Position numbers and translations under genes: made by a program. The notes under the pieces are model-generated. The model was not told the DNA's origin, did no database searches, and saw only the letters and a list, made by a program, of their open reading frames with translations. From an uncultured Porphyromonadaceae bacterium (GTDB taxonomy: Bacteria > Bacteroidota > Bacteroidia > Bacteroidales > Muribaculaceae), in contig CAMWSM010000003.1 of NCBI GenBank assembly GCA_947176915.1, forward strand, positions 5,566-69,565: 64,000 bases of DNA. The letters run 5' to 3'. Positions 21,726-49,500 of the stretch are shown in pieces (the stretch's first letter is position 1; each line of letters opens with the position of its first letter).

Positions 21726-22015
21726 AATCCGTTTCTCTCTTACCGCCGCGGAGCTTCAGCTCCGCCCTCTTTTGTCCTTATGTGCTTCTGTCTTTGATCA
21801 AAAGCCTCAGTATCCTCTCGTTCTCCGAAGGCCGGTAGCCGAGGTTGTCGGCCACATCCTCCGGCCTGATGATCATTATATGCCCGCTCGGATGCTGCAC
21901 CTTCAGCCGTCCGCTCGCGTACAGCCGCATCACGACCGCCTCCGCCAGCCCTCCCGCCGAACGTATCAGCACCGTGTCCCACGGCCTTATTCCATTCTCT
22001 TCCATATTGTCTGTC

Positions 22016-22282
22016 TTATTTCGGCGGCGTGAACTCGAAGGCGATGTCGTTCAGCGTAGGATGGTATGTCAGCAGCCTCGACCTCACGAGGCTGTTCAGC
22101 GCATCCTTGACGCGGACCGGCGACAGCCTCTCCAGGATCTCGGAGGTCGTGGCGTACGGCGGCGCCGTTCCCCTGCGTTCCTTGTCCCCGATTATCTCCG
22201 CCACGACCGCCGCAAGGCATTCCTCCAGCGGCGGCGTCTGTTCAAGCTCCTCCTTGCTCATGTCAGTCCCAGTATATGTCAA
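22016..22282 (-). CDS. Winged-helix-like small protein
   Basis: ATTSEILERL...VKDALNSLVRSRLL...TLND pattern. Confidence 0.5.
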   Translation of the reverse strand: MTYTGTDMSKEELEQTPPLEECLAAVVAEIIGDKERRGTAPPYATTSEILERLSPVRVKDALNSLVRSRLLTYHPTLNDIAFEFTPPK

Positions 22283-22934
22283 TGTCAGTTTTTGAAAGCT
22301 CGTTTATCAGTATTCCCGCGGTCAGCTTCCGCGCCGGAAGCTTGGCGTCGTAGCAGTCTCCGGCAAACTGAGGGATAAGGCCGTAGAGCTTCATGAACTC
22401 ACCCTGCACCATGCACATGTCCGGAACGTCCACCCTGTATCTCTCCCTTATCTCACGGTCGCAACTGCGGGCGTAGGCCTTCACCGCGTCAAGGATGGTC
22501 ATCGCCTGCTGCACCGCGATCACCAATGTGGCGTAGTCCTTTCGGATGTCCTGCTTCATGGTCTCGAACTCCAGCGCGTTGAAGAGCCGCGAGAGGTGCT
22601 TCTGCACGAAATCCTCGAACGCCTCCGCGCACTCCCTTTCGTTGCGCTCCGCCTTCCCGTCTATCGCCCGTGAGCGAAATTGCTCATACTCTCGTTTCAG
22701 CTGACGGACACGCCTCACGAGCGGCTTCGTTTCCGACAGCCGCATCTGAATCACCACGTCCAGCACCGTCTCCACATAGTCCCATCCCATGTTCATCAGC
22801 GTATAGAGGTTGGCCGCCCAATGGAGCAGCACGTCCTGCGGGACGGCGTCTGCGATCTCCACGAACCGCGGCCTCTTCGGAACGGAGACCGCCGTCACGT
22901 CAAGTCTTATCGGGGGGGGGGTATTTCGCATCAT
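22263..22934 (-). CDS. Hypothetical protein with a C10 homopolymer near the start
   Basis: 223-aa ORF; G10 on the plus strand at 22912-22921. Confidence 0.7.
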   Translation of the reverse strand: MMRNTPPPIRLDVTAVSVPKRPRFVEIADAVPQDVLLHWAANLYTLMNMGWDYVETVLDVVIQMRLSETKPLVRRVRQLKREYEQFRSRAIDGKAERNERECAEAFEDFVQKHLSRLFNALEFETMKQDIRKDYATLVIAVQQAMTILDAVKAYARSCDREIRERYRVDVPDMCMVQGEFMKLYGLIPQFAGDCYDAKLPARKLTAGILINELSKTDIDIYWD

Positions 22935-23051
22935 GTCCCATCTGATATTTAATCTTTAATATTTAATATTTTACAATTACCGCCCCTATCCATCGCGGAC
23001 AGGAGCGGCCGAAACTAACCTATAAATCTATACCATGAAACGATCAAGTAC

Positions 23052-23747
23052 TTATCTTTTAATCTGCGCTTCCGTCAGATACCTGACAAGCCCCCGGCTC
23101 TCGGCGAAGTCCATGAACTCGTTCAAGAGCGCGAGGTTATCGGCCTCCATGTCCGGATAGCGGTAACATGTTATCGGCGGAGCGTGCCGGGTCAGTTCAA
23201 GACCTCTCACGTCGTAACCATGCTTCTCCGGCCTGTAGCCATGAAATCTGAACAGGTCGAAATGAAACACATCCGCACTGAATATGTCGAGATAATATCT
23301 CCATTGGCAGGAATCCATGTACTCCTTGTCGCTACGGCTGGAATATATCGTCTTGATGTCACGTAACTCTATGCCGTCTATCATATCGGCACATCCGGTC
23401 ACTACCGCACGTCCGTAATCCTTGTACCGCCGTATCTCATGGAACGCACCGGGATGCTCGCCCCGGTAGTCAAGAGCGACTTGAAGCTGTTGGGCGTTGA
23501 ACATTACGGCGTGTCCGTCAACATCTATCCGGCATCCGTCCTTCGGGTCGGCGTATCGCGGCTCTCCGGTCTCAATAATTGAGTGGAACGCCGTGCCGAT
23601 CCGTGTGTATTCATTACCCTTGAAATCCCCCTTTATGGTCTCGATGACCCTCTTCTCGGGAATCTCGTAGTAGTCGCGCTCGATGCTGTTGGTGATGAAC
23701 CGCCGGAAAGCCTCAAGCGTCGTGACCCTTACTGTCGGTTTGCACAT
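23052..23747 (-). CDS. PD-(D/E)XK exonuclease-like recombination protein
   Basis: IGTAFHSIIE, GCADMIDGIELRDIKT and QWRYY motifs; coupled to the ATPase gene. Confidence 0.8.
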   Translation of the reverse strand: MCKPTVRVTTLEAFRRFITNSIERDYYEIPEKRVIETIKGDFKGNEYTRIGTAFHSIIETGEPRYADPKDGCRIDVDGHAVMFNAQQLQVALDYRGEHPGAFHEIRRYKDYGRAVVTGCADMIDGIELRDIKTIYSSRSDKEYMDSCQWRYYLDIFSADVFHFDLFRFHGYRPEKHGYDVRGLELTRHAPPITCYRYPDMEADNLALLNEFMDFAESRGLVRYLTEAQIKR

Positions 23748-24630
23748 CCCTGATGAATTTTTTGGAATCCTTGTCGTAGGAGAATCCCTTCTCCGTGAGC
23801 GCGGCTTTCAGTTCGGTGAAGAACGGACGTTTCAGTATGTCGGGGAGCTCCTTTGAGTCGGCGAGGATCGCGTCTGCATCCTCCGTGGTCTCGACTCCGG
23901 CTGTCTTTGCCCGCAGGTCGGCGAGCAGTTCCTGGGCCCTGCGCTGCGCCTCCGACTTGGACCGGATGGCGGCCTTCACCTGCCTGATGATGTCGGCCAT
24001 GCACGTATCGAACTCCTTCGACGGAGCGTTCGGGATAGCTATCGTGCCGAGCTCCGCCACATTCTTGCCCACGAAATTGTCAAGGGGCTCGAACGTGATC
24101 ACGCGCTGCCTGTTCTGGATCCATACATAGCCCACCTGGTCCGCGATCCTGACCAGGAGGTCTTTGCTCTGCCCCGTGCAGTCCGGTGAATGCTTGATCG
24201 TGTCGCCGTCCTTCTCCTCCTTGTCGTGGCATATGAAGATGATGTCCTTGCCCTTGGCGCGAAGCCGGTTCACAAACGCCTTGAACTGGTCTGCGATCTC
24301 TCCGAAACGCTTCAGGGAATTGGTCTTCAGCTTGTAGTTCTGACGGCACACGTATTCCACGAGATAGTCGTCGAGGGTAGCCTTGGCCGTATCGACCACC
24401 ACGGTGTCGTATGCGTCGAAAGAAGGCTCGTCACTGAGGATGTCCTCCCATTTGGTAGCGACCGAAGTGTCGACGATCCGCACCGCACGGTCATAGCCCC
24501 GGTCGGTGTCCACGAGGATCGGATTGTTGGCCGTTGTGGCCACGCTTGTCTTCCCGCTGCCCGGAACGCCGTACAGCACCATGATGATGCTTCGTTCCGG
24601 AAGAATGGTGTCTTTCTTGATTATAGCCAT
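23713..24630 (-). CDS. Sak4/AAA_24-type ATPase (single-strand annealing)
   Basis: YGVPGSGKT Walker A, VDTDRG, VVVDT, IIFICHDKEE. Confidence 0.88.
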   Translation of the reverse strand: MAIIKKDTILPERSIIMVLYGVPGSGKTSVATTANNPILVDTDRGYDRAVRIVDTSVATKWEDILSDEPSFDAYDTVVVDTAKATLDDYLVEYVCRQNYKLKTNSLKRFGEIADQFKAFVNRLRAKGKDIIFICHDKEEKDGDTIKHSPDCTGQSKDLLVRIADQVGYVWIQNRQRVITFEPLDNFVGKNVAELGTIAIPNAPSKEFDTCMADIIRQVKAAIRSKSEAQRRAQELLADLRAKTAGVETTEDADAILADSKELPDILKRPFFTELKAALTEKGFSYDKDSKKFIRDVQTDSKGHDA

Positions 24631-25362
24631 TAATGTTTATATTTTTGTAATGATGAATGTTTCAGTCTATCCCGCACATATACTCCTCCCGCCTGAGAGC
24701 CCTGCGCGACATCTCCTCCGCCTCCCTGCGTCCCGTCTCCGACACGCACAGCTCCGGACGGATGCTCCCGTAGTCCATGTCCTCGAAACGGTGGAGCAGC
24801 TCCCTGTCCCCCTCCGGGATGTCCAGCGAGTCAATGTAGTCACTCCATACTCCCATACACCCTCCATTCCTTGTTGATTTCAACTGCGAGCCCGAACACG
24901 AGCACCCCGAGCATCTTGAACACTATCAGCCTTGCTGCGGTCGCCCATAGCGAAAGCGACTCCGGCGGGATGTCGCCCAGCATCAGGAGCGCAAGCCCTA
25001 TCAGCGCGCCTATCACGCACTGTCTGATGAATCTTTCCATATGTTTGTTGATTTATATATAAAGTTTTATTCCGTACCGCTCCTTGAAAATCCTCTCCGC
25101 CCATTTCGGGACTTCCGTAGCCTTTTCAAGTTCGGCGATATATTCCTTCAAAGGTTCTATTATCTCGGAACCGGGGACCTCGCCGCCGGCGATGCCGAAG
25201 CGTTTCTGAATGTATTCCAGATCAGCCTTACACTTGGGCGACATCACGATGTTCTCATTGTTGCCGAGAGTGTGGACTACCGCAAGGATTCTTGCGGATG
25301 TATCGGTGCTGATTGCCGGAATCCCCATAGTCAGGCAGTCCTGAAGCCAGCGCCTGTAATCG

Positions 25363-25689: not shown

Positions 25690-25779
25690 ATATGCTGATG
25701 TTTTAAAGGATTTTTAAATAAACCGGACTATCTTCACAGACCGTCCGGGCAAGATTCTTATGAATATAAATGTGGAAAG

Positions 25780-26775: not shown

Positions 26776-26905
26776 CAGCCATAGAAGGACTCGAACCTCC
26801 GACCTGCTCAATGTCTTGGATTCCCGTACTCTGTTTTCAAACCGGGTGTCTATTACCGTTACTACCAAGCCTATGTGTCGCTCTGACCAACTGAGCTATA
26901 TGGCT
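26776..26905 (-). ncRNA. tRNA-like RNA 2 (130 nt), anticodon arm replaced by a longer insert
   Basis: Acceptor AGCCATA/TATGGCT; D-arm GCTC-AGTTGGTCA-GAGC; AGGTC variable loop; T-arm GGAGG-TTCGAGT-CCTTC; about 57 nt longer than a CCA-less tRNA. Confidence 0.75.
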
Positions 26906-27399
26906 TCCGTTATATATAGTTGACCAATCAAGTAGTCATCCATGCTGCCTTATACCGGGTGCGCCGTCATACGCGCTCACTGCCACCCCTAAGGCTTCCG
27001 TTATCGTGTCCTTGGTTAATGACCTTACCTGTACTCGGCTTTTTACGACCTTTCCTTTTTTTTTCATCGGTTCAGGTACAAGGACTAAATGTTAAAGGGT
27101 TAATCACTGTGCATCATGTTTTCCTGCTCTCGGTTGATGCGATATAAACCTCACGCCTCGTTTATCGGTCAGACGCCACCTCCAGCTATTTCTCGTCTTG
27201 GCTTGCATAGCCATGTGCCTCATCCTATACGCCGTTTGCGTACAAGGGAACTCCTTGCCGACGTATAGGAACCGCTATGTCATTGTGCTCTCTTATGGGT
27301 GGGAGCTTTCCCAAGCTCCCGCATCGTCGGAGTCTCCACCCGCCCCGCCCCGGTTTTCTCTCTTACCGCCGCGGAGCTTCAGCTCCGCCCTCTCAAGCC

Positions 27400-28736: not shown

Positions 28737-28761
28737 ATTTATTAAATTTACTCTTAAAAAA

Positions 28762-28920
28762 TTTGCATAAATAAAGGCGAATCACTATCTTTGCATTGTG
28801 ATTATGTAGAAGTTGCTCCGACGAGCGACCCGCCTTTGTATTGTCTTAATTGTGGTTCTTTATTAAAGACAGTGCAAAATTAATATAAACTTTCTGAAAT
28901 ATCAAGTTTACTTGATATTT
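28762..28920. promoter_or_regulatory. Lysis/lysogeny switch: convergent promoters and a palindromic operator
   Basis: Plus strand TTTG (28762-65), 20 nt, TATCTTTG (28786-93); minus strand TAATTTTG (28882-75); perfect inverted repeat AAATATCAAG-TTTA-CTTGATATTT (28897-28920). Confidence 0.75.
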
Positions 28921-28948
28921 TTAACTTTTATTAACCTTTGCGCAACAT

Positions 28949-29272: not shown

Positions 29273-29292
29273 ATGATTTTCAAATTTATATT

Positions 29293-31839: not shown

Positions 31840-33090
31840 ATGACCTATAAGTTTGTAGTCCGCAAGGAGAGAAACAATGCTGTGATGCTCCGTCTGACGG
31901 CCAACAGGAAGAGTTCGGAGCTTTCCCTCGGTGTATCCGTCGCTCCCGAAACCCTCGAAGAAATACTCCATGGTGAAACTCCAAAGGGGTACAAGGAACA
32001 GTCTATGGTGATACGGCATTACCAGTATGTTTTGGAAGATCTGATAGAGCAACTTAAGGATGAAGGAGTAAAGATATTTTCGGCCTCCGAATTCCAGCAG
32101 CGCATCCGCAAGGAGATAGAGGGGAGAAAAAGCCCAAAGACTTCCGAAAGTAAGAGAAGTGACATCTATCCAGTCTTTGAAGAGAAGATAGGGACCTTAC
32201 GTAACCTTAATACACAAGAGACTTATACTAAGGCTCTTGGGTATATAAAATGCTTCTGCGCGGATGAGGAAAATCCACTGCGAAAAGATCAGGAAGCTCT
32301 CATGTTCGCAGACATAACACCCAAATGGCTGACCGCCTTCGATAATTGGATGGCTGAAAAAAGAAACCTTAAGACCAATTCAAGGTGGCTCTATCTTCTG
32401 AAACTCCGCGCAATCGTCAATAAGGCCCTTGACGATGAGATCATAGAAAAGGATCCGTTTCGACGCTTCAAGATACAAAGAGAAAAGACACGTAAGCGCT
32501 CCTTGTCGGTAGACGACCTTCGGCTTCTTTTCAATTACCAGGGCACGAAGATCCAGCAATATTACATTGATATGTTTAAACTGATTTTTATGCTCTGTGG
32601 AATCAACACCAAAGATCTCTACAACCTCAAAAGCATTACCCGCAACGGACGTATCGAATATAGACGCGCCAAAACAGGGCGTCTGTATTCAATCAAGGTT
32701 GAACCGGAAGCGATGGCGTTGATTAATAAATACAAGGGCACGGATTATCTTCTGATCATAGCGGAGAAAACTCCGGCCTTCAGGTCATATACATCACTTT
32801 TCAACGGTATGCTTAAACGAATCGGGAAAAAGATTGATGCACAGTTGGTGGCCGATAAAAAGAAATCCGACAAGGAGGAATCCGACCTATCGCAAATTTC
32901 CCCGTATTGGGCCCGCCACACATGGGCAACGATAGCGCGAAAACTGAAGGTTCCCATCGACGACATAGCACTTGCTCTCGGACACAGCACAGGACACGAT
33001 ACAACCGACATCTATATAGCGGAAGACCATGAAGCGATCGACATAGCCAACCGCCGCGTCCTCGACTATGTGCTGTACGGCAAATCCTAA
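31840..33090 (+). CDS. int: Tyrosine integrase, Bacteroidales type
   Basis: Arm, SAM-like and catalytic domains; YRRAKTG, YWARHTWAT, ALGHS, TTDIY. Confidence 0.95.
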   Translation: MTYKFVVRKERNNAVMLRLTANRKSSELSLGVSVAPETLEEILHGETPKGYKEQSMVIRHYQYVLEDLIEQLKDEGVKIFSASEFQQRIRKEIEGRKSPKTSESKRSDIYPVFEEKIGTLRNLNTQETYTKALGYIKCFCADEENPLRKDQEALMFADITPKWLTAFDNWMAEKRNLKTNSRWLYLLKLRAIVNKALDDEIIEKDPFRRFKIQREKTRKRSLSVDDLRLLFNYQGTKIQQYYIDMFKLIFMLCGINTKDLYNLKSITRNGRIEYRRAKTGRLYSIKVEPEAMALINKYKGTDYLLIIAEKTPAFRSYTSLFNGMLKRIGKKIDAQLVADKKKSDKEESDLSQISPYWARHTWATIARKLKVPIDDIALALGHSTGHDTTDIYIAEDHEAIDIANRRVLDYVLYGKS

Positions 33091-39000: not shown

Positions 39001-40541
39001 TTTTTATGTTCTTCCTCATATCTGCGAAGATCCTCGTTGTGCTGCTTCTGTGCATCATCAGCAGTACGTAGGGTGTCTGAGAGTTTTTTTGTCTCTTCGG
39101 CACGCTGAGTCAAGATGTTTTTGGCACTGTCGGTCAGATTCCCTTTTTTATCGTATGCCAATCCCTGCGCATTGAGAGAGTTGAATTGCTCGGAAAGAAG
39201 TCTGATCTGCTCCCTGTAGCGTTGCACTTCCTCGACTTTGCTTTTAGTCCAGCTTTCCCCTAATCCCTGAAAGGATTTCTGCTGGAAGTCTTGCATATAT
39301 TGCGTCGCGATTTCCAGTTCACGGTTATATTTGGCAATCATATTGGCTGCGACATTCCATCCGTCAGATCCGATTTTTTCAGTCTGAATCTTAGACTGCC
39401 AAGCAGAAAGACGGGTATTCAGACCTTCCAAGGTATCAGATGCGGCTTTCAATGCCTCTCTGAACAGACGAAGCTTCTCGGTCTTTGCGACCTCTGCATT
39501 CATCTGCTCCAATTTTGTGGTCAGACTGCTTGCGGCATTCATTGCATCCCTGAACTCCTTACTTCCGAAATCAGACCTTCGCATCAAATCCTGATATGCC
39601 TGAATCTTAGCCGTTAAGTCGGTAAGGGTGGATTCGGGCATGATCGATATTGGCTTGGAAGTTATTTCCATCTGCTTGCGTTTGAGATTGTCAAGCTTTT
39701 CTTCAAGCCTAACTATCTCCTTGGCGGCATACGCGAACTGACCGCTTCCTTCCACGGAACGGTTCATGATGCCGTGCCAGATCTTCAGTTTGGCGTTTAC
39801 TCGGTCAATGGAGTTTTCCTCCTGAAGGAGAGCGGACTTTATGCGGGCGCGCTCCTGAAGGCGTTTCTCGGTAACCTTCACGTCATTGTCTGTGACTTTC
39901 TTCTGAGAAAGATTAAGCTTATCAAGCTGCTCCCTGAGCTGCTGTACCATCTGTGAGTTGTAGGCCCATTTCTTGCTCCCCTTGTCAGCGGAGTTCATCT
40001 GCTTTGTGTAGAAATTGAGCCGTGCGGTCAGACTCGTCACGCTGTTCTCCTCGTTTTTCAGCATGTCTACAAGTGCCTGACTCTTTGCCTTTCGCTTTTC
40101 AAGTTCCGCCTGAGCCTTCTGATTGGTTCGTATCTCCGCGTCCGCCGCCTTCTTCGCCGCCGACGCTATCTGCTCCAGACTGCGGGCATAACTCTCGCTC
40201 GCCGTCACAAGTTGGCTGTAACGGTTGATAATCTTCATGGCATCTGCCGTGAACGCACCGCTCTTCTGGTCCGTTATGCGCTGTGCCTCGCTGAGCTTGT
40301 TCCACTGCTCGATAAGTTTCGCCATCTCCTTGCGCATGGCGTTGATACTGCCCTTGCCGTAGTCTCCGAGTTTCTTGTCCCATCCACCCTTAGGCTGTTC
40401 TATCTCTATGCCAAGCTTAAGCGGACGCGAGTTAATCATCGTGCCGAGTCTTTTCAGCACTCTGTCCGCGTCTCCGCTTGCCTCCTTTACTGCCGCCTCC
40501 AGGTCGAACTTGACCGGGAAAACCAATTTGCCGTCTGCCAT
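33087..40541 (-). CDS. Tape measure protein, 2484 aa
   Basis: Long helical Ala/Lys/Glu-rich ORF with a tape-measure core (LGVSMDRVVLAYGQVRATGHLRASEIRQF); late-gene context. Confidence 0.93.
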   Translation of the reverse strand: MADGKLVFPVKFDLEAAVKEASGDADRVLKRLGTMINSRPLKLGIEIEQPKGGWDKKLGDYGKGSINAMRKEMAKLIEQWNKLSEAQRITDQKSGAFTADAMKIINRYSQLVTASESYARSLEQIASAAKKAADAEIRTNQKAQAELEKRKAKSQALVDMLKNEENSVTSLTARLNFYTKQMNSADKGSKKWAYNSQMVQQLREQLDKLNLSQKKVTDNDVKVTEKRLQERARIKSALLQEENSIDRVNAKLKIWHGIMNRSVEGSGQFAYAAKEIVRLEEKLDNLKRKQMEITSKPISIMPESTLTDLTAKIQAYQDLMRRSDFGSKEFRDAMNAASSLTTKLEQMNAEVAKTEKLRLFREALKAASDTLEGLNTRLSAWQSKIQTEKIGSDGWNVAANMIAKYNRELEIATQYMQDFQQKSFQGLGESWTKSKVEEVQRYREQIRLLSEQFNSLNAQGLAYDKKGNLTDSAKNILTQRAEETKKLSDTLRTADDAQKQHNEDLRRYEEEHKKATEAARKALEQWKATRQMLQSNEERLVNLNAKLQFYQSLIQKQQVGSEAWNKTAMEVRRLSEELQRANQYLNDFQSKAFRGLSTNFTAQQTEAVQNLRRQIDDIDKQFNRLYQSGRATKADGTYTDSVNAMLKERMRLTEEINRMMKTAADAQLEREKEINRLIERRNAKNKEQQAAYNKARQAGLEQYRILKNQEKTISEISAKLQLQRQRLNNANMDSAKFKKIAAEVERLTRKLENAQRKVAELTGQSSSSAKTRTRNIQNVNQEYAKQLTYLDRLVRRMAVYGSIGMLGNFVRNVREVTAQFELQRVSLGAILQDQTKANQLFSEIKSFALKSPVSILDLTKYTKQLAAYKIGYDELFETTKKLTDVSVGLGVSMDRVVLAYGQVRATGHLRASEIRQFTEMGVPIVEELAAKLSKMNGELVTAADVMDMVSKRAIGFDMVKEVFDDMTSAGGIFYNMQEKQGNTLYGLWAKLGDAASVMYDEIGRTGAVNSVMKGLIQLATDLMKNWGLVAAELFVVGTAIGIVVRRNQINATTTSLQAAALNKVRNAGMAYNAILAEEAKLLKVGTAAQLQSVAARKANAKAALDAAIAERTAANATGFWTRSVEKLKAAFMGNWMTILITAAAAIGVAIAGAVEKATRLKRALNEIEAETIRLQTQSVGRFEHLAEAAVNAADGSRKQRDALAELSRTYGEILPQDALKLENLRQMNHSYGELTATLREYIATQQMQKGLSEISENYGAEINKSSKKLIDGLVSEMKIGRDVAANIVGEMQRDFQEKLEKGERDTRTITQRMIAAARKYGVEMSNLQAANAGSPWYDLIWASDKYLVEFYNALGDLDRESADFENRMKGMAGASYEFQKAIEETKKKISDLTLTNPDGSAINENTLLGQQVKANETMKVVADMIKSDTSIENAIKDKETEWNEDWIHLVASVDPDNLMEITTVNFDAIIKALNAKYPQIADKIRQIQKEWGNVAPTNPTAVQIRQKLLDVADSFGVSIDKMKKYLWDGSGSVDDYLKKLKEQQETLKARLKEKEQTLLNMGVISKWWNKLLGKDIEAEVEQMKKEIEALDKLVPFTEGYTVQKKKKSGGRKSDPRLQNLKEEISLVQKLYQEYKQLDKQEGATKATADMNRMAKDTIAMLSKKYGIGLPKTANDVVSALEILYGKMEQLPRKAFPSLDKDLEELRWTIEKVGIDDSQKNIEAELKKLADRISRTKMAKEFYDKILSQTGDAELAINLTTSIYGEDGESLDKQIQEQIRAIVGSTSATLDMGVFFPDDSLDPKKLREFAEAQKDALGGMESKAYQELIKLSDNAEKDFAKTIEGWMKATEKAKTYGDKLADVYRKTATEIEAIQKKMDSGQLDKGIGSDLIAGFKRKEAEEVAKLQYEAFKDSPMYVQMFDDLDNASTRMLGNMRNRLIAMQGEWKNLDPTQLKELQGRLNEIDTQLARRNPFKTIADGIRDYRGLGKAGDGLGNKSEKGAEKALDAAAKARLEAEREYLAVLDDEKSTQEEIAAAKLKFDNAAANEDAAAKALENWKKVKDAIGLSSNELMQMLNWAGDIAGAVADISEALGADEEDVQYWNDVASALGEISGGIQDIVSAAMSGNVVGVISSTLTAIPKMFVGFVNLFNANRIRKANKEIRRQQELLEQLEYTYSRVQKAAEKAFGADYIRNYNQELQNLEAQAEAYQKQAEAEKSKGKKTDKEKLKEYENSYRDTMDEIADMQTQLVEKFTGTNRQDVARQMAQSWIDARVSMSDTFAAIKGDYSEMIKNMLVEGAAARVIENALTPMWDKMDAMLKDNNIDGAIDSLVGGMDDALNAANNGMEVLWKALEARGYDMKQLIGEADESYTGIAKNVAGATSEEINANTAALNTQNYYLSHVPAIGENVAAIRMILQGGSATVSGGSAGPAKTIDYTDLLTAANQHLASLPRMERHLSDIYTLLNRVVVYEKGRFVVNSSLKG

Positions 40542-41716: not shown

Positions 41717-42347
41717 ATGAAAGAACCAAACCTGAGCCTTATGGCTTCCGACCTGCTTCATGCGGCCACTGCCCTTGCAGGAATCCTCGACCAACCAATC
41801 GAGGGAAATCTCATTACAGTAAATTTCCGACACGCAGCCGAACTGATACGCGACGTGCAGATCTCGGCGAATCTTGCGGCCAACGAGCTTCTTCTGACCC
41901 ACTACGAGAAGGGAGGTGAACAATGAAAACGTCAAACAGAATCCTCGCGCCTATTGTGGCTTTCCTCGCCGCTCCATTCGTCATGAGGCTTTTGGTATTT
42001 ATAGTTGACAAATACGGGTGGATACCATTTGCTTGCATTCTTATCGGCACGGTGTTTCTAATCTTTCGCGCATGCGGTCTTTTCAAAAAGAAAGGAGGCA
42101 ACCAATGACCCGCTACGACTTCACGGACGCTTCCGACTTCCTTGTCGCGGTAGGAATCACACCCGAAGAACTTTACAGCGAAGTGGTGGACTCTATGGGC
42201 GAGGTGGATCCGAAGACTCCGCTCTGGCACACCCTGCTCACGCTCGCCGACTTCATTGAGTGCATCGTTCCTGCTCCTCCATCGCGATCCTCTGCATCTC
42301 CTCGGCGGTCAAAGGCTTCTTCTCGCCGTCATGAAGCTTCGTCATGA
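41717..42347 (+). CDS. Three small coupled ORFs under the c4-like leader (41717-41926, 41923-42108, about 42105-42347)
   Basis: ATGA overlaps; the second is a two-TM peptide; antisense to the late genes. Confidence 0.65.
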
Positions 42348-43151
42348 AGCCGAACCGGGCGAGCACGTCGCCCACCTCCCGCGTGCTCTTCGGTCTGAGC
42401 GGCGCCTTCGGTTTCGGTGGCTCGGAGAAGTCATAGTCGTAGTAACCCTTGTCGATAAGTAGGATATTCACGTAGTCCGCGCTGTCAAGGTGCCAGTAAC
42501 GGAGCCACGACCACAGATTGTAGTCGCCGTAGAGTCCCTTTATCTTCTCGTTGTCGGAAGAGAAAAGGAACGCGCTCCCTACCTGCTGTCCTCCTTTGCC
42601 TCCGAACCGTCCTTCTCTACCATGTTCGCCGCGCTCTCCCCACGACGCATCCTTTGCCTGACGGCTTCGCCAACCTGAGTCATAGAGAGAACGAGTGCTT
42701 GCTTTGAGCTTCCCAAGTTGGCCAAATAAAAAACCTTGTTCTCGCCTATGGCCTCGGTGGCGTTGATTGTGGCCGACACCGCCTCAGACGAGTTGTAGAT
42801 GCGTCGCCACATGAACGCGAAGAGAAGCGGAACCCACCTCAGCCACATCCCGAGCACCTGGTGAGCCGCCTTCTTAGCGTATGCCTTCCGTATCCTCGTG
42901 CTGACGCGCTTCGCCTTCCTCCGGCTCAGATTCCCCTCCTTGAGCGTCTTCTGCCAATACATCACGTCGAAGTCAAGGTTGGCCATTATCTGGTTCTGCG
43001 CCTGGCTTGTCGGGCGCAGATGCCACTTCTTACCCTTGATTTCGACAATCACGTTCCGTCCTCGCCTCACGAACTCGGCCTCCGTCAGCAACCGCTCCAT
43101 CGCCGCCTCGTCCATCGTGAAGCCCTTCTCTTCCTGCTTCTCCTCCGCCAT
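42253..43151 (-). CDS. Tail assembly chaperone (42579-43151) with a probable -1 frameshift extension to 42253
   Basis: Follows the major tail gene; the -1 frame is stop-free from at least 42738 to 42253. Confidence 0.75.
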
Positions 43152-43219
43152 GTTTTTTTTGATTAAAAAGCGGCGATTGAGCATCGTGCCAATCGCCGCC
43201 CGATCCGGTTATGTCTTCC

Positions 43220-43807
43220 TTACGCCGCCGGCGCGTCGCTCTCATACGTCGGCTTGGCGTCAAACATCATCGCCGTCTTAAGGGTCGGCAGATTGATGTA
43301 TTCGGCTGTGGCCGTGGAGTTGATCGTAAACTTCTTGCCGTCGCAGCCGATGCTCGACACGATCTTCGCCTTCGGGAAGAAGAGCGCGCGGTTGGCCTCG
43401 TCGTTGAACCATCCGAGAGGTCTCGTGATGACCGGGAGGTCGATGTGGAAGCCCACGGCGTTCTTGATGTTCTGAAGCACGGTCGAAGTCAGCCCTTCGA
43501 GCTTAACGCCCTTCAGGAACTTCACGATGTTGTCTACCGAAAGGTCCGCCATGTTGAACTTGACGGCAGCGGTGCCGTCCTTCACGATCGAGGTGATCAG
43601 CTTGCCCTGCTCGTCCTTCCAGTTATCCACTTCGGCGTCCTCGCCCACCCATTCCGACGAGTCGCCGGAAACCTGTCCGGCCGATTCCCCCGCGGCGGTG
43701 ATTTTGGTGAAGGTGGCGGTCTTGTAGTCTTCCACCTCATCGAATATCACGAGGTCGCTCTGCCCTACGAATACGGTGGACATCGCCTGTTTCTTGATTC
43801 CTGCCAT
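43220..43807 (-). CDS. Major tail (tube) protein
   Basis: Size, beta-rich composition and position between the tail terminator and the chaperone. Confidence 0.75.
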   Translation of the reverse strand: MAGIKKQAMSTVFVGQSDLVIFDEVEDYKTATFTKITAAGESAGQVSGDSSEWVGEDAEVDNWKDEQGKLITSIVKDGTAAVKFNMADLSVDNIVKFLKGVKLEGLTSTVLQNIKNAVGFHIDLPVITRPLGWFNDEANRALFFPKAKIVSSIGCDGKKFTINSTATAEYINLPTLKTAMMFDAKPTYESDAPAA

Positions 43808-43833
43808 ATTGATTGTGAATTATGAATTATACA

Positions 43834-45592
43834 TTATGAATTGTTCGAAGTGTGCCACGCCACATTCAAAGCCGTTGTCGCGTAGCCTGTTGTATAGTCG
43901 GGGGTCGGGGGAGTAATCACGTTGGTTGGATCGAGCTTGAAAAAGAATCCCTGTGAGCTCTTGCGGTCCACAAGCTCCACGCACTGCGCCACGATCCTGC
44001 TCATATGCGGCTGTTTGATTGTGCCGTTGGAGTTCATCCTGCAGGTGATCATCAGTGCCAGATTTCCCTCAAACTCCCCTATCGGATTCGTCCACGAACT
44101 CACCGCGCCGTTATAGAGAATCGTGATGAAGTCCGTGCCGACACCGCTGTTGGGTTGCATACCCTGGGCATAGACCTCGAGAATCCTCGCGTCCGGGCCA
44201 ACTTTCACCTTGCCGTCAAGCAAGGATTTCAAGGCTATGTCCGGGTTAAGTTCCGATACGTTCATCTTACAAAACTTGTTATGGGTCCGCTCATGCCTAC
44301 GATTGCCGTTCCGAACTGCTCTTTGATGTCCATTCCGAGCCATTCGCAAAGGGCAGTGAAGAAGCCCTCTCCTCGGTCTTTTGGCGAACCGATGTCTTCT
44401 ATCTGCTCAGCATAGTCAACCGCCGAGAACATCACCAGCCACAATCCTTTGGCAAAGGTGGTTGAAGCATTCGAGAGGGCTTCCGAGAGTTCTCTTGTGC
44501 CCCATATTTGCTCCCCCGACGCTGATTCCTGCGGAGTGTCAGCCCTCTGCACGGGCATATACTTGTCAAGGTGTCCGTCAACATAGATGCCTATTCCGGT
44601 AGCGTCATGGAGATTGGCGGTCCATTCGGGAAACTGCCAGCTTTTCGGATAGAAGCCCCGCTCGATAAGGTCAAGCATCTTTCCGGCTATGACGCGCATC
44701 CGGCGCACCACTTCCTTCTTCGCTTCCTTCTCTGCGAAATCCCTCAATCCGACCTTTATCACCGATAGGTTATGTGCCGTGTAGTCACTCATCGCCTTAT
44801 CCTTTCTTACCGCCCGGGAGCTTCAGCTCCCGATCAATTCCCGATCATACTCCATCTCCAGCCGCGTGAACCGCTCTCCCGTAATCGGCATTTTCACGTT
44901 CCTCACGGTCTTGACCCGACACTCCTTCCTCACGCCGTTGCCCTGCGTGACGATCGCCAAGTCGTTCTCGCGGATCCTCACGTCCCCGGGGAGAATCACC
45001 ACGCTGTTGCGCTGCCTCCACTCCCGGTACGTCTGCACCCCCTGCTGGTAGCTGCACCTGTCGCTGTAGACCTCCTTCAAGGCCTCGCCGCCGTCCTCGT
45101 CGTAGCCGTCGGCACGGCTTATCACGCACGAATCCTCAAACCTTATCAGTTCCATGGCCGTCTGCGCTTAAGTGAAGTAAGTGAAGGCTTCCGGAGATTG
45201 CTCGCGTCAAACATCCCGCCGCTGTCGGCCTGCGTCTCCTCGATGTCCGCGCCCACCAGGCCACGGAGCTTGTCGCCCATGGCCCGGTAGTAGTCGCGGT
45301 CACGCTGGGTAATGATGAAGCCCGACATGGAGGCGCTGATGTCGCCCACCTGCTCGTGCCGCGAACCGCCGCTGAACGCCCCCGCCGCGGAGTAATAGAG
45401 GGTAGAAGTCGCGTAAGTGAGACTCCGCACAAAATCCTCGTCAGTGGCGTTGTCCTCCACCACGTCTTCAAGCGAGATGGGCTTCATTGCCGTGGGCGTG
45501 GCGAATATGGGCGACAACGCCGCCTTCTTCAGCACGTTATCCGCGAAGGGATAGCCGGGTATCTCGCCCCTCAGATGTTCCTCTACCGTCAT
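43834..45592 (-). CDS. Neck/tail-completion genes (43834-44265, 44262-44792, 44823-45155, 45146-45592)
   Basis: Four 110-180 aa coupled ORFs between capsid and tail tube genes; 44262-44792 has a gp10-like AVDYAEQIE motif. Confidence 0.7.
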
Positions 45593-45611
45593 GCTCCGTC
45601 AGTGTCAGTGG

Positions 45612-46907
45612 TTATTCGGTGCCTCCACCGCCCTGTACGGGTCGTGTCGCAACAGTCTTTGCAGCCTTGCCGATCACGATACGGTGAAGCTTCTTCGGAC
45701 GGTTAGGCACCGCAAGCACCGTAAGCTCCGATTCCCAGTGCTGGGTCTTGGTCTTCGGGTCATACCAGTAGTCCATGATGCCGCGCTTCTCGAACATCCA
45801 GCTATACAGATAGGAGGAGTCGGGACGCATCGGTGTCACGTTCTTCATTGTGCCTATGTTGCCTGTCGGACGGAAGAGCATCACATGCTCGTTGAAGGCC
45901 CTGAGAAGCGGGTACTCGAACTTCTTGGTGGTCTCGTTGAGCGTTGCAACCGCTACCATCTCGTTGTGGAGCTTCACTTCGGAGATTTTCTTGAAAATGC
46001 GCTTGAAGAAGCCGATCATGATCGCGGTGTCGTTGCCGTCAACCGCTAAGATGTGCGCTCCGGCTTCTGACGCGCGTGCGTCAGCCTCGTCGTTGTCTTT
46101 AGCCGAGATGAAGAGACCCTTGATTTCAAGATAACCGATTGCCCTCACGATGTCGGGGTGTCCCATGAAGGTCAGGAACGACCACTCGTCAGCTTCCACT
46201 TCCACCGCGCCGTAGGTGCCGTCGAAGAGAAGTTTGTTGAGGAACTTGTTGTAGTCCTGAATCGGGCGCTTGGTGGTGTCATAGGTGACGTTGCCGTCCG
46301 CATCCACGGTGTAGTACTCACCCATGATTGTGTTCTCGGCCGGCGCTTTTGCCTTGAAGGACACTCCCACGATACCGTTGGGGTTGTTCACGTCCGTGAG
46401 GTCGAGCGAGAAGTTTGACTTCATCTGGCCCACCTGATAAGTGATTGACTGCGCGTGCGAGGCGGGGAAGTCTCCGGCGAACTCAAGGAGGTTCTTTGAG
46501 AAATAGTCCTTGATGTCTCTGTAAGGCGACTCGCCGCGTAGTTCCGCCACGCCCGCGAGTTTCTGCGCCTGGACCGCCTCTGTGCGGTAGTCGTTCTCGT
46601 CCTTGGTCTCGTAGCGTTTCTGGCGCGGGATGTAACCGGCGATCGTGCGCATCGGGATTTCACGACCCCTTGCGACTGCCTGAGAGTAGATGTCAAGGTA
46701 GGTCGCCATCGCGGTCACGGTGTCGGTCACTTCGGCGAACTCGTAGTCGAAGCCGATCTGAGCGTCGTCCCACGTGAAGCCGTCCATGTTGAAGTTCATG
46801 TTCTCACGCCCCTGAAGGTATTTCTCATACCAGCACTCGAATTTCTTCTGCGTGCCGATGCCGAGGGCCTTCATCACGTCGATGTATGAATTGATTGATC
46901 TATCCAT
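45612..46907 (-). CDS. Major capsid protein
   Basis: 431 aa, downstream of scaffold and decoration genes; terminal ESELTVLAVPNRP pattern. Confidence 0.8.
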   Translation of the reverse strand: MDRSINSYIDVMKALGIGTQKKFECWYEKYLQGRENMNFNMDGFTWDDAQIGFDYEFAEVTDTVTAMATYLDIYSQAVARGREIPMRTIAGYIPRQKRYETKDENDYRTEAVQAQKLAGVAELRGESPYRDIKDYFSKNLLEFAGDFPASHAQSITYQVGQMKSNFSLDLTDVNNPNGIVGVSFKAKAPAENTIMGEYYTVDADGNVTYDTTKRPIQDYNKFLNKLLFDGTYGAVEVEADEWSFLTFMGHPDIVRAIGYLEIKGLFISAKDNDEADARASEAGAHILAVDGNDTAIMIGFFKRIFKKISEVKLHNEMVAVATLNETTKKFEYPLLRAFNEHVMLFRPTGNIGTMKNVTPMRPDSSYLYSWMFEKRGIMDYWYDPKTKTQHWESELTVLAVPNRPKKLHRIVIGKAAKTVATRPVQGGGGTE

Positions 46908-46919
46908 GTCTGTTGTGCT

Positions 46920-47303
46920 TTAGGCGTTGATGAATCCGATGCTCCCTTTGAGGTATGCCTTCTGCGCCGCTGTGATTGTGGCAAGGGTGCGTTTTTCGTA
47001 GATCTGTCCTTTTGTCACCACGGTAATGGTGCATCCGTCGCTTCCCATCCAGCGGTCGTCTTTGCTGAGTCCGGTCGGTGTCGCTCCGTTGAGCGTTCCT
47101 GCGCCGCCGGGCACATTGTCCTTCACGGTCACGGGGGTGCCGCCGGGGATTTTCGTGCCTACGGGGCAATCGTCCGAGGGGAGAAGTGTCGCACCCCCGG
47201 GGAATGTCTCCTCTACGTCGTGCCAGAGCTTGATGCGGCCGAACCCGGTCGGATCGCTTTGGGTGGCGTTGAACGTACCTCCGTAATTTTCAATGTCTGC
47301 CAT
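46920..47303 (-). CDS. Head decoration protein (probable)
   Basis: 127-aa Gly/Thr-rich ORF between scaffold and capsid genes. Confidence 0.65.
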   Translation of the reverse strand: MADIENYGGTFNATQSDPTGFGRIKLWHDVEETFPGGATLLPSDDCPVGTKIPGGTPVTVKDNVPGGAGTLNGATPTGLSKDDRWMGSDGCTITVVTKGQIYEKRTLATITAAQKAYLKGSIGFINA

Positions 47304-47336
47304 ATGAAATCTGGGGTTTGGGGTTAATGAATAGGG

Positions 47337-48020
47337 TTATTTCTTCGGCTCGGTCCACCCGAGTTTCTGCGAGGCCCTGTCAAACGACGAGAAGTCCGCA
47401 TCCTCCTCTCCGCTCCCTCCGTCGCTGTCGAAAGGCTTCGTGAAGTCCGTCACGCCCTTGGCCTTGACCGCCGGATCGAACTCCTCACGGAATGCCGCGA
47501 TAAGCTGTTCCCCGGTCATGGCCTCGCCTCCGGCCTTGTAGACCTTCAGCGCGATACGCTTTGCCAGCTCGCTTTCCGAAGGAAATCCTTTGGCGTAGTC
47601 CCATTCGCTCACGAATTTGTCAAGCGCGGCCACTGCCGTCTCCTTGGCTTTAGCGGCCTTAAGGGAAGCAAGTTCCTCTTTAAGCGGATTGATTGCCTCA
47701 GCGAGTGCTTCCGCAAACATCGCCTTGAAGTCCGGCTTTTCGTCCGCAGGCTTCGGAAGCTCAGGGTTTGGTTTGGGTGGCTGATTGCCGTCATCAGAGG
47801 GTTTCGGAGGCTCGTTCTTCTTTTCCAAAGTACGGAGCTTATCGTTCACACTCTGATATTGTTTGAGAAGAGGCTCAACCCCTGCCACGATGTCAGGTAT
47901 CTGCTCCTCGCTCGTGATGAGATTTCCGTAGGCAGTTACGACCTTCTCGTAGATTTCATTCTTTGACCCAAGTGCACCGCCGTACCTTTGTTCCAAAGCT
48001 GCCAAAAGTTTCTGCTTCAT
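47337..48020 (-). CDS. Head scaffolding protein (probable)
   Basis: Helical, charged, with a Pro-rich linker; upstream of the capsid genes. Confidence 0.65.
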   Translation of the reverse strand: MKQKLLAALEQRYGGALGSKNEIYEKVVTAYGNLITSEEQIPDIVAGVEPLLKQYQSVNDKLRTLEKKNEPPKPSDDGNQPPKPNPELPKPADEKPDFKAMFAEALAEAINPLKEELASLKAAKAKETAVAALDKFVSEWDYAKGFPSESELAKRIALKVYKAGGEAMTGEQLIAAFREEFDPAVKAKGVTDFTKPFDSDGGSGEEDADFSSFDRASQKLGWTEPKK

Positions 48021-48103
48021 ATTGAAGTGTTTGCGTTAATAAAAAGAAAGAGCCACACCCCATTGCTGGGATATGGCTCTTGGCTCTTTGATTGAATATG
48101 TAA

Positions 48104-48178
48104 TGGAGACACAGGGCGGATTTGAACCGCCGTAGCCGGTTTTGCGGACCGGTGCCTGACCGTCTCGGCCACTATGTC
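48104..48178 (-). tRNA. tRNA-Cys(GCA), encoded CCA, C at position 33
   Basis: GACATAG/CTGTGTC, U73, CCA; anticodon arm CCGGT-CCGCAAA-ACCGG; T-arm GGCGG-TTCAAAT-CCGCC. Confidence 0.9.
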
Positions 48179-48185
48179 ATTATTG

Positions 48186-48260
48186 TAACCCCAACGGGAT
48201 TCGAACCCGTATTACCCAGAATGAAAATCTGGTGTCCTATTCCAATTAGACGATAGGGCC
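48186..48260 (-). tRNA. tRNA-Glu(TTC)
   Basis: CCAGA-TTTTCAT-TCTGG anticodon arm; ACGGG-TTCGAAT-CCCGT. Confidence 0.9.
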
Positions 48261-48266
48261 GTTTTG

Positions 48267-48338
<72 letters not shown>

Positions 48339-48346
48339 ATGTTTAG

Positions 48347-48419
48347 CAGGACATGAAGGACTTGAACCTCCGACTTTCGGTTTTGGAGACCGACGCTCTA
48401 CCAACTGAGCCAATGTCCT
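48347..48419 (-). tRNA. tRNA-Trp(CCA)
   Basis: AGGACAT/ATGTCCT, G73; TCGGT-CTCCAAA-ACCGA. Confidence 0.92.
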
Positions 48420-48423
48420 GTTT

Positions 48424-48520
48424 GATATTACCCAACGCTCAGGTCTTCAACCTGCCTCTTGCTTCGACGCAACCGAATAAAGCAAATCTATCGGAGCGCA
48501 TGGTCGCTTTGGATAATATC
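48424..48520 (-). ncRNA. tRNA-like RNA 3 (97 nt), five-way junction inside the tRNA cluster
   Basis: 12-bp closing stem GATATTATCCAA/TTGGGTAATATC enclosing hairpins AGCG/CGCT, CCGA/TCGG, TTGC/GCAA and CAGG-TTGAAGA-CCTG. Confidence 0.6.
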
Positions 48521-48576
48521 GGTCGTTCTTTCACACGGGATGGTATGACCATATTCCCATCCCTCATTTGGGTTTG

Positions 48577-48650
48577 TGGAATCACGGGGACTCGAACCCC
48601 GAACCCTCTGCTTGCAAAGCAGACGCTCTCGCCGATTGAGCTATGATCCC
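48577..48650 (-). tRNA. tRNA-Ala(TGC)
   Basis: GGGATCA/TGATTCC with G3-U70; TCTGC-TTTGCAA-GCAGA. Confidence 0.93.
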
Positions 48651-48669
48651 ATCACGTATTATCGTTCTC

Positions 48670-48834
48670 TCATCTGTCAAGACTTATGTCTTCCATCTTT
48701 ATGTGAACTTCCCTCTTGCAGACTTTGCAGAAAAGATAAAGGTCTCCCCTGCCGTTCATATCCTCGCATTTGGCGAGAATCTTGCCTTTACGTCCGGCTC
48801 TTCTGCATTCAGGACACAATATCTCACGCTTCAT
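48670..48834 (-). CDS. 54-aa Zn-ribbon (Com-like) protein, probably leaderless; absent from the ORF track
   Basis: MKREILCPECRRAGRKGKILAKCEDMNGRGDLYLFCKVCKREVHIKMEDISLDR; two CxxC pairs. Confidence 0.8.
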   Translation of the reverse strand: MKREILCPECRRAGRKGKILAKCEDMNGRGDLYLFCKVCKREVHIKMEDISLDR

Positions 48835-48838
48835 ACGG

Positions 48839-48894
48839 CAAAGTTATTAAATTATTTTTAAATATCCAAATAAATCGCTAATGAAACTTTAAAT
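48839..48894 (-). promoter_or_regulatory. Head-operon promoter with the 24-bp upstream box
   Basis: ATTTAAAGTTTCATTAGCGATTTA-TTTG-N20-TAACTTTG. Confidence 0.8.
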
Positions 48895-48896
48895 TT

Positions 48897-49457
48897 TTAT
48901 TTCTTTCTCTTCCTTGCCAGCCAAGCCAGCAAGGCAATGATAATAACAGAAACCCCCAATCCCCCGAAAGCAATCCCTCCAAAGTCCATCTTAGTCCTCT
49001 CCCACTTCGTCAGCTTTCGCTCCACCGGATAGGGCACAGGAATAGAATCCTGCTTGACGGATTCAAGCCTTGCGTTAAGGATGCCGATCGAATCCCTCTG
49101 CTCCTCGATCATCCTTTCGTATTCCTTCTCCTTATATGAAGACAGATAGATGTACTCCACACGGTCGTGCCTTGTGGTGTCTCCCTGCTCATTGAGGGTG
49201 GTGGTCTCCCTGAGGAAATGGGTCAGCGAATCCGAAGACATCTGATTGCTCCTCACCGACTCCCGCATCATCCTGAGTATGGCGTTGTAGATGGCCGTGT
49301 CAGTCTTCAGCGTCTCAGCGTGGTATTCCGGCGCCGGAACGCACCGCGTCCTGCACCCGCACATCACGCACGCCAGCAGAAGTAGCGCGGTCATGACCGT
49401 CACCGAAGCGGCCGCCCTGCCCCACTCCGCGAATATTTTTTTGTCAAAGTCCTTCAT
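48897..49457 (-). CDS. Probable unimolecular spanin
   Basis: N-terminal lipoprotein-like signal (LLLLACVMCGC), C-terminal TM helix plus basic tail; last gene of the lysis cassette. Confidence 0.7.
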   Translation of the reverse strand: MKDFDKKIFAEWGRAAASVTVMTALLLLACVMCGCRTRCVPAPEYHAETLKTDTAIYNAILRMMRESVRSNQMSSDSLTHFLRETTTLNEQGDTTRHDRVEYIYLSSYKEKEYERMIEEQRDSIGILNARLESVKQDSIPVPYPVERKLTKWERTKMDFGGIAFGGLGVSVIIIALLAWLARKRKK

Positions 49458-49500
49458 GATGAATTTTCTTTCTTACTGCCAGGGAGCTTCAGCTCCCGTC

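Follow-up and report, generated by a model that had tools for sequence, protein, structure and literature searches.

The DNA analysed here, a stretch of 64,000 nucleotides from the assembly of an uncultured Porphyromonadaceae bacterium (GCA_947176915.1, contig CAMWSM010000003.1; the whole stretch is called the window below), represents a tailed phage, or a prophage, whose host belongs to the Bacteroidales, and the source name of a close homologue suggests that the host family is probably Muribaculaceae. On its minus strand a small hairpin followed by a constant tail recurs at four gene junctions. The neighbourhood of copies 1 and 2 holds the genes for Ant/Rha, Sak4, an exonuclease and MazG, copy 3 lies between head-tail genes downstream of the capsid gene, and copy 4 lies behind an amidase endolysin and ahead of the gene for a 186-aa membrane protein. 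This agrees with an earlier sequence-only reading of the window, which had placed the repeat in early and late operons. What kind of element is it, and how did it come to these junctions?

The four copies and their surroundings

The full layout of the repeat is GGAGCTGAAGCTCC-NN-GGCRGTAAGARAG, present in four copies. The hairpin GGAGCTGAAGCTCC is found exactly on the minus (coding) strand at 21750-21763, 27373-27386, 44817-44830 and 49483-49496, against a mean of 0.45 in the shuffled window, and none of 100 shuffles reaches four. GGCRGTAAGA likewise occurs in the window exactly four times, each time 2 nt 3' of a hairpin, a count matched by 0 of 100 shuffles, and a repeat finder returned the same four-member family. 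The four-copy palindrome with a fixed tail described in the sequence-only reading is thus real, with two corrections: the coordinates given there shift by one base, and every copy has a spacer of 2 nt where 2-3 nt had been stated. As had also been noticed, copies 1 and 2 are identical over 39 bp (21732-21770 and 27355-27393). These two form subtype A, with GC-GGAGCT..AGCTCC-GC and the tail GAGAGAAA, and copies 3 and 4 form subtype B, with (C)G-GGAGCT..AGCTCC-C(G) and the tail GAAAGRAWA. As RNA, each copy is predicted to fold into a stable hairpin of 6-8 bp with a UGAA loop (alternatively a 2-nt GA loop), followed by an unpaired purine-rich tail.

All four copies are oriented sense to the local genes and lie at or just after a stop codon, as the earlier reading held. 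Copy 1 (AGGGC-GGAGCTGAAGCTCC-GC-GGCGGTAAGAGAGAAACGG; 21729-21768, on the minus strand like the other three) lies between the stop of a 75-aa gene, 14 nt upstream of the hairpin, and the ATG at 21725 of a MazG-like pyrophosphatase gene (21399-21725, minus strand). Copy 2 (27352-27391) lies behind a 69-aa HTH_17-like gene whose stop is 13 nt upstream of the hairpin, and is followed by a further hairpin and by a conserved non-coding, RNA-like sequence, both described below. Copy 3 (CGGGAGCTGAAGCTCCCG-GGCGGTAAGAAAGGA; 44796-44835) parts a gene pair at 44262-45155 on the minus strand: the 110-aa gene (44823-45155) stops at the TGA in its loop, and the ATG at 44792 opens the 176-aa gene (44262-44792). 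Copy 4 (GGGAGCTGAAGCTCCC-T-GGCAGTAAGAAAGAAAA; 49462-49501) is flanked by two genes at 48897-50118 on the minus strand, with the TAG stop of the amidase endolysin gene (49501-50118) 3 nt upstream of the hairpin and the ATG of the 186-aa membrane protein gene (48897-49457) at 49457. Between the end of GGCRGTAAGA and the next ATG lie 12 nt at copies 1 and 3 and 13 nt at copy 4, while copy 2 has no start codon there. It is therefore three copies that precede an ATG, as had been claimed, at 12-13 nt and not at 15-25 nt.

Could the tail help to load ribosomes on the next gene? The 16S gene of a same-genus genome ends with ...CACCTCCTTTCT, and the 16S 3' end used for pairing was ...CCUCCUUUCU. The tails pair with it at -10.5 kcal/mol (copy 3), -6.4 kcal/mol (copy 1) and -5.6 kcal/mol (copy 4), in the same register as real AGAAAGGAGG sites, at 5-6 nt from the ATG; the median gene pairs less well. 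A strong Shine-Dalgarno (SD) function of the tail is only partly supported by these values, which are moderate for copy 3 and weak for copies 1 and 4. A subset of the phage genes carries long and strong SD sites (AGAAAGGAGG; -12 to -17 kcal/mol), with gene starts at 53011, 28530, 8581, 8429, 7986, 13479, 17601 and 21112, and most other genes have none. In the phylum to which the Bacteroidales belong, SD pairing is commonly regarded as little used, which makes the strong sites of the phage notable.

Several familiar kinds of signal were tried at the copies and rejected. An intrinsic terminator does not fit, as the sense hairpin is followed by GGCRGUAAGA and not by a U-tract, and only copy 1 looks terminator-like, on the opposite strand only. 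No sigma-70-type promoter site was found at the copies. The promoter consensus of Bacteroidota is TTTG at -33 and TAnnTTTG at -7, and no TTTG...TAnnTTTG of this type was seen by eye at the copies. An operator of the CI/Cro kind was dropped, no copy being located in the divergent repressor/early promoter region at 28737-28948. A search of the window and of contig C125 of the same genome with Rfam 15 gave only tRNAs and no match at the four sites, so a known RNA family was rejected. A hairpin of a diversity-generating retroelement, an N4-type hairpin promoter and an integron attC site were also dropped, since no reverse transcriptase, virion RNA polymerase or integron integrase turned up in the scans run.

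Comparison with related phages

The metagenome-assembled genome (MAG) to which the window belongs holds a second, related phage, spread over contigs C82, C43, C55, C30 and C52, which is 80-94% identical to the window in patches and has a capsid protein 95% identical. Either the host carries both phages, or the bin mixes two strains. Aligned over about 5.5 kb (42265-47817), the window and C82 are 93.4% identical and differ by five indels (1, 3, 6, 9 and 38 nt). The 38-nt indel, the sole large one of the aligned block, is copy 3. It is a net insertion relative both to C82 and to locus L053, which comes from an independent sample, encodes a protein 92% identical and has the same tight junction as C82. 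The junction in C82 reads ...GAGTATGATAAGGAGGTAAGCGATGAGTGAC, where the TGA of the upstream gene overlaps the ATG of the downstream gene (ATGAGTGA) and a strong AAGGAGG lies ahead; C82 and L053 both read ...TATGA(T/C)AAGGAGGTAA(G/T)CGATGAGTGA, with the genes overlapping. In five further relatives the two genes overlap or have a junction of 1-4 nt, so that in total at least seven relatives show the tight pair. Since all of these share the tight junction, it is ancestral and copy 3 is a recent insertion. The comparison of orthologous junctions for empty sites, which the sequence-only reading had proposed as a check, thus yields a clean empty site at copy 3. By this insertion the last six codons of the upstream gene were replaced, RELIGS and the stop codon being supplied by the insert; the gene pair was uncoupled, and the strong SD was exchanged for AGAAAGGA. 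The right junction lies within an AAGG microhomology, and for this reason the exact end of the insert cannot be fixed. Only the ambiguity of GAT and AAGG is visible at copy 3, and the solo units of the phage have no terminal inverted repeats, which are, together with a target-site duplication, a criterion for a MITE (miniature inverted-repeat transposable element).

The other copies also mark differences between the two phages. At the locus of copy 1 the sister phage has the stop of the 75-aa gene, 1 nt, and then the ATG of the next gene, while the window has copy 1 and the entire MazG gene in between. At the locus of copy 4 the sister has a different, GH108-like endolysin, and the conserved 186-aa gene follows after AT-rich DNA of about 1 kb. 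At the locus of copy 2 the upstream HTH gene is non-homologous in the sister, and homology (85%) resumes about 65 nt downstream. Thus all four copies fall at differences from the sister phage, and copies 1, 2 and 4 lie at the edges of inserted or swapped genes (MazG, HTH and endolysin). Downstream of copy 2, the minus-strand stretch at 27188-27293 is non-coding and, between unrelated flanks, 85% identical to the sister; with its long stem CCTATACG...CGTATAGG it may be a conserved small RNA.

Is the motif present anywhere else? In a pattern scan of its own assembly of about 3 Mb, the full motif was found at the four sites of the window only, with none on non-phage contigs, and the hairpins of this genome with a TGAA loop and a stem of at least 7 bp are all on phage contigs, bar one unrelated hairpin. 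A host REP (repetitive extragenic palindrome) of this genome is thereby ruled out. The motif was not found in exact and relaxed pattern scans of 100 related genomes, nor with two patterns in IMG/VR. All GTDB species representatives gave only two matches, both inside unrelated coding sequence and near the chance expectation, and when the 50-nt unit was compared by BLAST with 50,697 phage records, only matches of the kind expected by chance came up. Relatives were also collected through single proteins. Those found by the capsid protein in IMG/VR and metagenomes (L016-L021; 83-86% identity) are without the motif, and their junction equivalent to that of copy 3 is just 3-13 nt long; none of the relatives found by the 176-aa protein (L053-L059) has it, and neither do the loci of amidase and MazG homologues (L031-L052), where unrelated hairpins or none lie downstream of the amidase homologues. 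No family member was found in about 187 kb of related phage DNA. The motif scan of related phages, by which conservation was to be checked, therefore came out negative. A conserved phage signal is ruled out, the motif being missing from every relative examined, including the 93%-identical sister phage. Because close relatives do without it, the motif, as judged from these comparisons, cannot be an ancestral and required signal of the phage.

Related hairpins in the phage and in Muribaculaceae

The motif has relatives of looser resemblance. Beyond the four copies, the same MAG contains one hybrid fifth hairpin in the window and two diverged copies on contig C125. A covariance model (R1) was built from the four copies and run over 401 genomes of the host family. 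About ten genomes gave matches better than 1e-3, and only C125, genome G039 and genome G220 are clearly beyond chance; the weaker matches in other genomes have E values of 1e-4 to 1e-3 per genome, at which homology to the phage copies is insecure. The diverged members keep a GC-UGAA-GC apex and a tail GGCRGT(A/G)A(G/C)AAA, and their stems differ.

Contig C125 is a phage fragment that encodes portal, DUF3127-like, methylase and resolvase-like proteins, and its two copies score 41 bits each. One of them, GGAAGCTGAAGCTTCC-GC-GCGGTAAAAAAG, has a stem with one extra A-T pair. The other, CCATGGCTGAAGCCATGG-GGCGGTAAGAAAGAAG, has a stem that is almost wholly different (CCATGGC/GCCATGG) with the same loop and tail, and it shares the upstream sequence GAATTGAT with copy 3. 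In G039, a genome of the same genus, 15 copies form the two inverted arms of a dispersed palindromic element of about 330 nt, similar to a MITE or to a REPIN (a pair of inverted REPs). The ends of this element are GTGTGTCAAAA...TTTTGACACAC, inverted, and its arm CCGGGGGGC-TGAA-GCCCCCCGG-CTAACAAAGGATAGGCG resembles the ...GGCGGTAAGAAAGGATAAGGCG of copy 3. The host-chromosome abundance that the earlier reading took as a mark of an ordinary host REP is therefore not seen in this host genome, but it is seen in a related species (15 copies). In G220, which belongs to another genus, eight model matches fall within a 1.5-kb stretch between convergent genes, where at least 13 GC-TGAA-GC hairpins are arrayed, several of them with the tail GG(C/T)C(A/G)GTAAGAAAGG. 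This non-coding array (G220:C6:8940-10400; L107) is a mosaic of at least four kinds of hairpin module (GACGGC-TGAA-GCCGTC, GGGGC-TGAA-GCCCC, GCATGC-CGAA-GGCATGC and GCTGCACC-ATGG-TGCAGC), similar to bacterial interspersed mosaic elements (BIMEs). Genome G334 has a tandem pair, and genome G445 several GGAGCTGAAGCTCC hairpins. The family members in bacterial chromosomes lie away from start codons.

For 25 distinct aligned members, 97.7% of the stem cells are paired and 5 of 7 pairs are changed on both sides, values reached by 0 of 500 shuffles, though the alignment was fitted to the model and any palindrome pairs, so that a hairpin of RNA and one of single-stranded DNA are not separated by these figures. 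Neither the loop nor the two pairs adjoining it vary among the 25 members. As far as the alignment goes, this shows a stem whose sequence can change freely and a loop and tail that are under constraint.

A second, related hairpin family, GGGMGSTT-RGGA-AASCKCCC-ACCCAT, is also present in the phage. Three tandem 38-nt units of it lie at 53059-53172 (minus strand) behind the giant tail-fibre gene, whose TAG stop sits in the first of their loops; two more units lie upstream of the window on the same contig (C3). The tail-fibre-like open reading frame itself (53151-63983, minus strand) encodes more than 3,610 aa with many internal repeats. The second family accompanies the motif at copy 2 and on C125 (C125:1121-1140, adjoining a motif copy), and its stem versions GGGAGCTT and GGGCGGTT are complementary variants. 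The hybrid hairpin that follows copy 2 (GGGAGCTT-GGGA-AAGCTCCC-ACCCAT-AAGAGAG; 27288-27320, minus strand) combines the stem arms and the AAGAGAG tail of the motif with the loop and the ACCCAT flank of the second family; at its position the sister phage has an unrelated hairpin, CCGTCC...GGACGG. The host chromosome (G000) carries at least 14 copies of a dispersed hairpin GGGGCAG-GGGA-CTGCCCC (e.g. C1:81632, C8:40977 and C75:7889), with the same GGGA loop as the second family of the phage. These occurrences suggest that REP-like hairpins may be a general feature of this lineage.

Some other features of the window were recorded. An integrase gene (31840-33090, plus strand) lies between the late and the early arms, and a 2,484-aa tape-measure protein is encoded at 33087-40541 (minus strand). 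Five ordinary tRNA genes (Cys, Glu, Met, Trp and Ala) lie between lysis and head genes at 48104-48650 (minus strand), and a tRNA-like RNA of 130 nt with a long insert at 26776-26905 (minus strand) scores 43.8 bits with the tRNA model of Rfam and is not called by ARAGORN. The early region holds an insertion sequence of the IS21 type (about 9165-11515, minus strand) with an IstA-like transposase (rve and Mu-transposase C-terminal domain) and an IstB-like ATPase, and its 55-nt end is 100% identical to contig C107. A link of the repeat to this IstA/IstB element was considered and dropped, as no similarity was seen between them.

Origin and possible role of the repeat

What do these observations make of the motif? 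We favour, at a probability of about 0.55, the reading that it is a REP/MITE-like hairpin repeat of Muribaculaceae, which spread recently into gene junctions of this phage and is tolerated there, perhaps co-opted. Among the origins offered in the sequence-only reading, a miniature mobile element fits best, given the absence from relatives, the empty site at copy 3, the position at module edges and the diverged multi-copy relatives in Muribaculaceae. The genome comparisons show that the insertions are derived, lineage-specific and placed at mosaic joints, and that the copies belong to a family whose stem covaries around a loop and tail that stay the same; we infer the mode of spread and any role as a cistron boundary on the mRNA. 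The unit would be about 35-45 nt long, with a GC-rich stem of 6-8 bp, G-C and C-G pairs closing a TGAA loop, and the 3' tail GGCRGT(A/G)A(G/C)AAA, and its family would be amplified sporadically in Muribaculaceae genomes. It may have spread to the four gene junctions by transposition-like or microhomology-driven recombination, the surviving insertions being only those that respected operon function. A sense insert would then supply or follow the stop codon, put an mRNA hairpin behind the upstream cistron, and leave an unpaired, weakly SD-like leader 12-13 nt before the next ATG. Such copies could act as portable cistron boundaries, combining a barrier to 3' decay, a translation uncoupler and a leader for the next gene, and perhaps also as joints for module exchange. 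The constant spacing of 12-13 nt is suggestive of selection on the surviving insertions, since an insert in a tight operon would have to keep the next gene translated.

How does the motif compare with known repeats? A REP is a stem-loop of 20-40 bp with a stem of 5-13 bp, a loop of 2-20 nt and an unpaired GTAG or CGTC tag at one end; REPs are multi-copy, extragenic and mostly downstream of open reading frames, with subfamilies that differ by complementary stem changes (PMC3733652). The motif has a stem of 6-8 bp with a loop of 4 nt (TGAA) or 2 nt (GA), and it too is multi-copy and extragenic with complementary stem changes: four copies, one hybrid and two diverged copies lie behind stops, though the copy number is low and confined here to phage contigs. 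It shares with REP, BIME and REPIN elements the short GC-rich stem-loop (stem of 6-9 bp, short loop), the complementary stem changes in subfamilies (PMC3733652), the position mostly just downstream of coding regions, where it is probably transcribed, and insertions that can reach into gene ends. Also as in those elements, the units are single, arrayed (G220) or in inverted pairs (G039), and their copy number is very uneven between species. It differs in that neither strand has GTAG/CTAC or an unpaired CGTC/GACG beside the stem, the flanks being ...GGC-hairpin-NN-GGCRGTAAGA, so that an invariant C-TGAA-G loop and a purine-rich 3' tail of about 13 nt stand in place of the tag. Unlike a REP, it is low-copy, sits on phage DNA and is absent from the chromosome contigs of this host, and it flanks no gene of a REP-associated tyrosine transposase (RAYT) in G039 or G220. 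The likeness to MITEs and to the hairpin ends of IS200/IS605-type elements comes from G039, with its element of about 330 nt with terminal inverted repeats and its four Y1 genes. In contrast, the phage copies are solo, without terminal inverted repeats or an adjoining transposase, and no target duplication or cleavage tetranucleotide was established for them.

Several results weigh against a mobile, co-opted repeat. No transposase or other mobilising enzyme was found linked to it. The four Y1 transposase genes of G039 (IS200/RAYT-type, PF01797) are full-length and none has a repeat within about 1 kb, and G220 gave no PF01797 match; a RAYT/REPtron arrangement, with repeats beside Y1 genes, was thus not found in either genome. 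At the single clean insertion, copy 3, neither a target-site duplication nor defined ends of the element can be made out. To these are added the insecure homology of the weaker matches and the limit on the covariation figures given above. It is also the case that copy 2 has no ATG, that one C125 copy is antisense to the neighbouring genes and that the tails of copies 1 and 4 are weak as SD sites, and for these reasons the copies may be merely tolerated, without function.

An alternative is that the motif is a dedicated RNA signal of the phage, such as a processing or stability site, a translation uncoupler or re-initiation leader, or a nut-like antitermination site. The four sense copies directly behind stops, the 12-13 nt from tail to ATG in three of four, the predicted stable hairpin with its unpaired purine-rich tail and the partial pairing with the 16S 3' end would all suit such a signal. 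Yet we consider it unlikely, as the motif is missing from every relative, including those 92-93% identical in which the junction works with the genes overlapping, a start codon is lacking at copy 2, a C125 member runs antisense to its neighbours, and the members in bacterial chromosomes, which lie away from start codons, add to the want of an Rfam match. Comparable phage repeats are the start-associated sequences (SAS) and extended SAS (ESAS) of Cluster K mycobacteriophages, which are conserved across the cluster, travel with particular gene families and lie 3-7 bp from the start codon (PMC3203893). These are likewise phage-specific, asymmetric repeats in one orientation upstream of starts, with an SD-like core, often preceded by an inverted repeat and absent from the host; the motif differs from them in its absence from all relatives, in its distance of 12-13 nt to the ATG and in its covarying stem, as the inverted repeats of SAS show no hairpin covariation. 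The RNA processing or translation-coupling signal named in the sequence-only reading thus does not stand as an ancestral, required signal; it may still have a secondary, co-opted role, given that the copies are sense and that the ATG follows at a fixed 12-13 nt. The same reading had offered an operator for a phage protein, here a stoperator-like site where a dimer on the GGAGCT..AGCTCC duplex would block or tune transcription. Stoperators of Cluster A mycobacteriophages are asymmetric repressor sites of 13-14 bp, also found at the early promoter. The motif resembles them as a short site repeated in one orientation to transcription in short intergenic gaps, and its near-perfect 14-bp palindrome in multiple copies and the HTH proteins encoded nearby would fit. 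It is palindromic with a variable stem, however, and has no copy in the immunity region at 28737-28948; it is missing from related phages with related regulators, and it is present in bacterial genomes without this phage. Moreover, its members keep the loop and tail and change nearly the whole stem (as with CCATGGC/GCCATGG on C125), and a free stem with a constrained loop and tail is hard to square with a protein that reads the duplex arms. The operator is weakened by all this to the point of being very improbable.

A further alternative is a mobile cassette of the PeSL (promoter early stem-loop) type, which would carry its own promoter, for a host or phage sigma factor, together with a stem-loop, and would drive the downstream gene. 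The PeSL cassettes of T4-type phages are about 100 bp long and include a strong sigma-70 early promoter; both promoter and terminator activity have been demonstrated for them, and a part in the shuffling of modules has been proposed (PMC2839356, PMC4122927). The order of intergenic stop, stem-loop, SD-like leader and start, next to genes that are inserted or replaced between two close phages, recurs here (cf. PMC2839356), with all four copies at differences from the sister phage, and in the sister phage an AT-rich, promoter-like region takes the place of copy 4. On the other hand, the motif is only 35-45 nt long and has no recognisable promoter, whether of Bacteroidota consensus or sigma-70 type; the tail would leave a leader of about 12 nt at most, copy 3 lies inside a tightly coupled head-tail operon, and no phage sigma factor or RNA polymerase was found. 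Such a cassette is highly unlikely. Or is the motif only a neutral by-product, a hairpin-prone sequence that replication slippage or template switching has duplicated, lacking both a function and any machinery for mobility? The few copies in two near-identical pairs, the AAGG microhomology at the one resolvable junction and the lack of a linked transposase speak for it. But related units occur in 15 copies as arms of a structured element of about 330 nt in another species, loop and tail are conserved across genera despite differing stems, and 5 of the 6 phage-borne copies are sense and adjoin a stop codon, which makes a mere by-product improbable.

A bolder version of the mobile repeat, which we put forward as doubtful, is that the motif belongs to an undescribed mobile hairpin family of Muribaculaceae, marked by an invariant C-UGAA-G apex and a purine-rich 3' tail in place of a GTAG/CGTC tag, which actively enters phages as a self-contained gene-junction adaptor and drives their mosaicism. 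With a stop codon, a hairpin on the mRNA and a leader for ribosome loading, the adaptor could split overlapping genes and dock new ones (MazG, endolysin) without polar damage. Small palindromic repeats are well known in proteobacterial chromosomes; to our knowledge, and as far as the present searches went, they have hardly been described in Bacteroidales or inside phage genomes. Here two co-resident phages, 93% identical, differ by a clean 38-nt insertion that turned a coupled, overlapping pair into a stop, a hairpin, a leader and a start. If the copies are tolerated junk only, they caution against reading the repeated intercistronic hairpins of one phage as regulatory. If the element is mobile, it would be a class of hairpin repeat with a loop-plus-tail signature, unlike the GTAG/CGTC REPs, and it would give a concrete route to the mosaic joints of phages in an abundant gut lineage.

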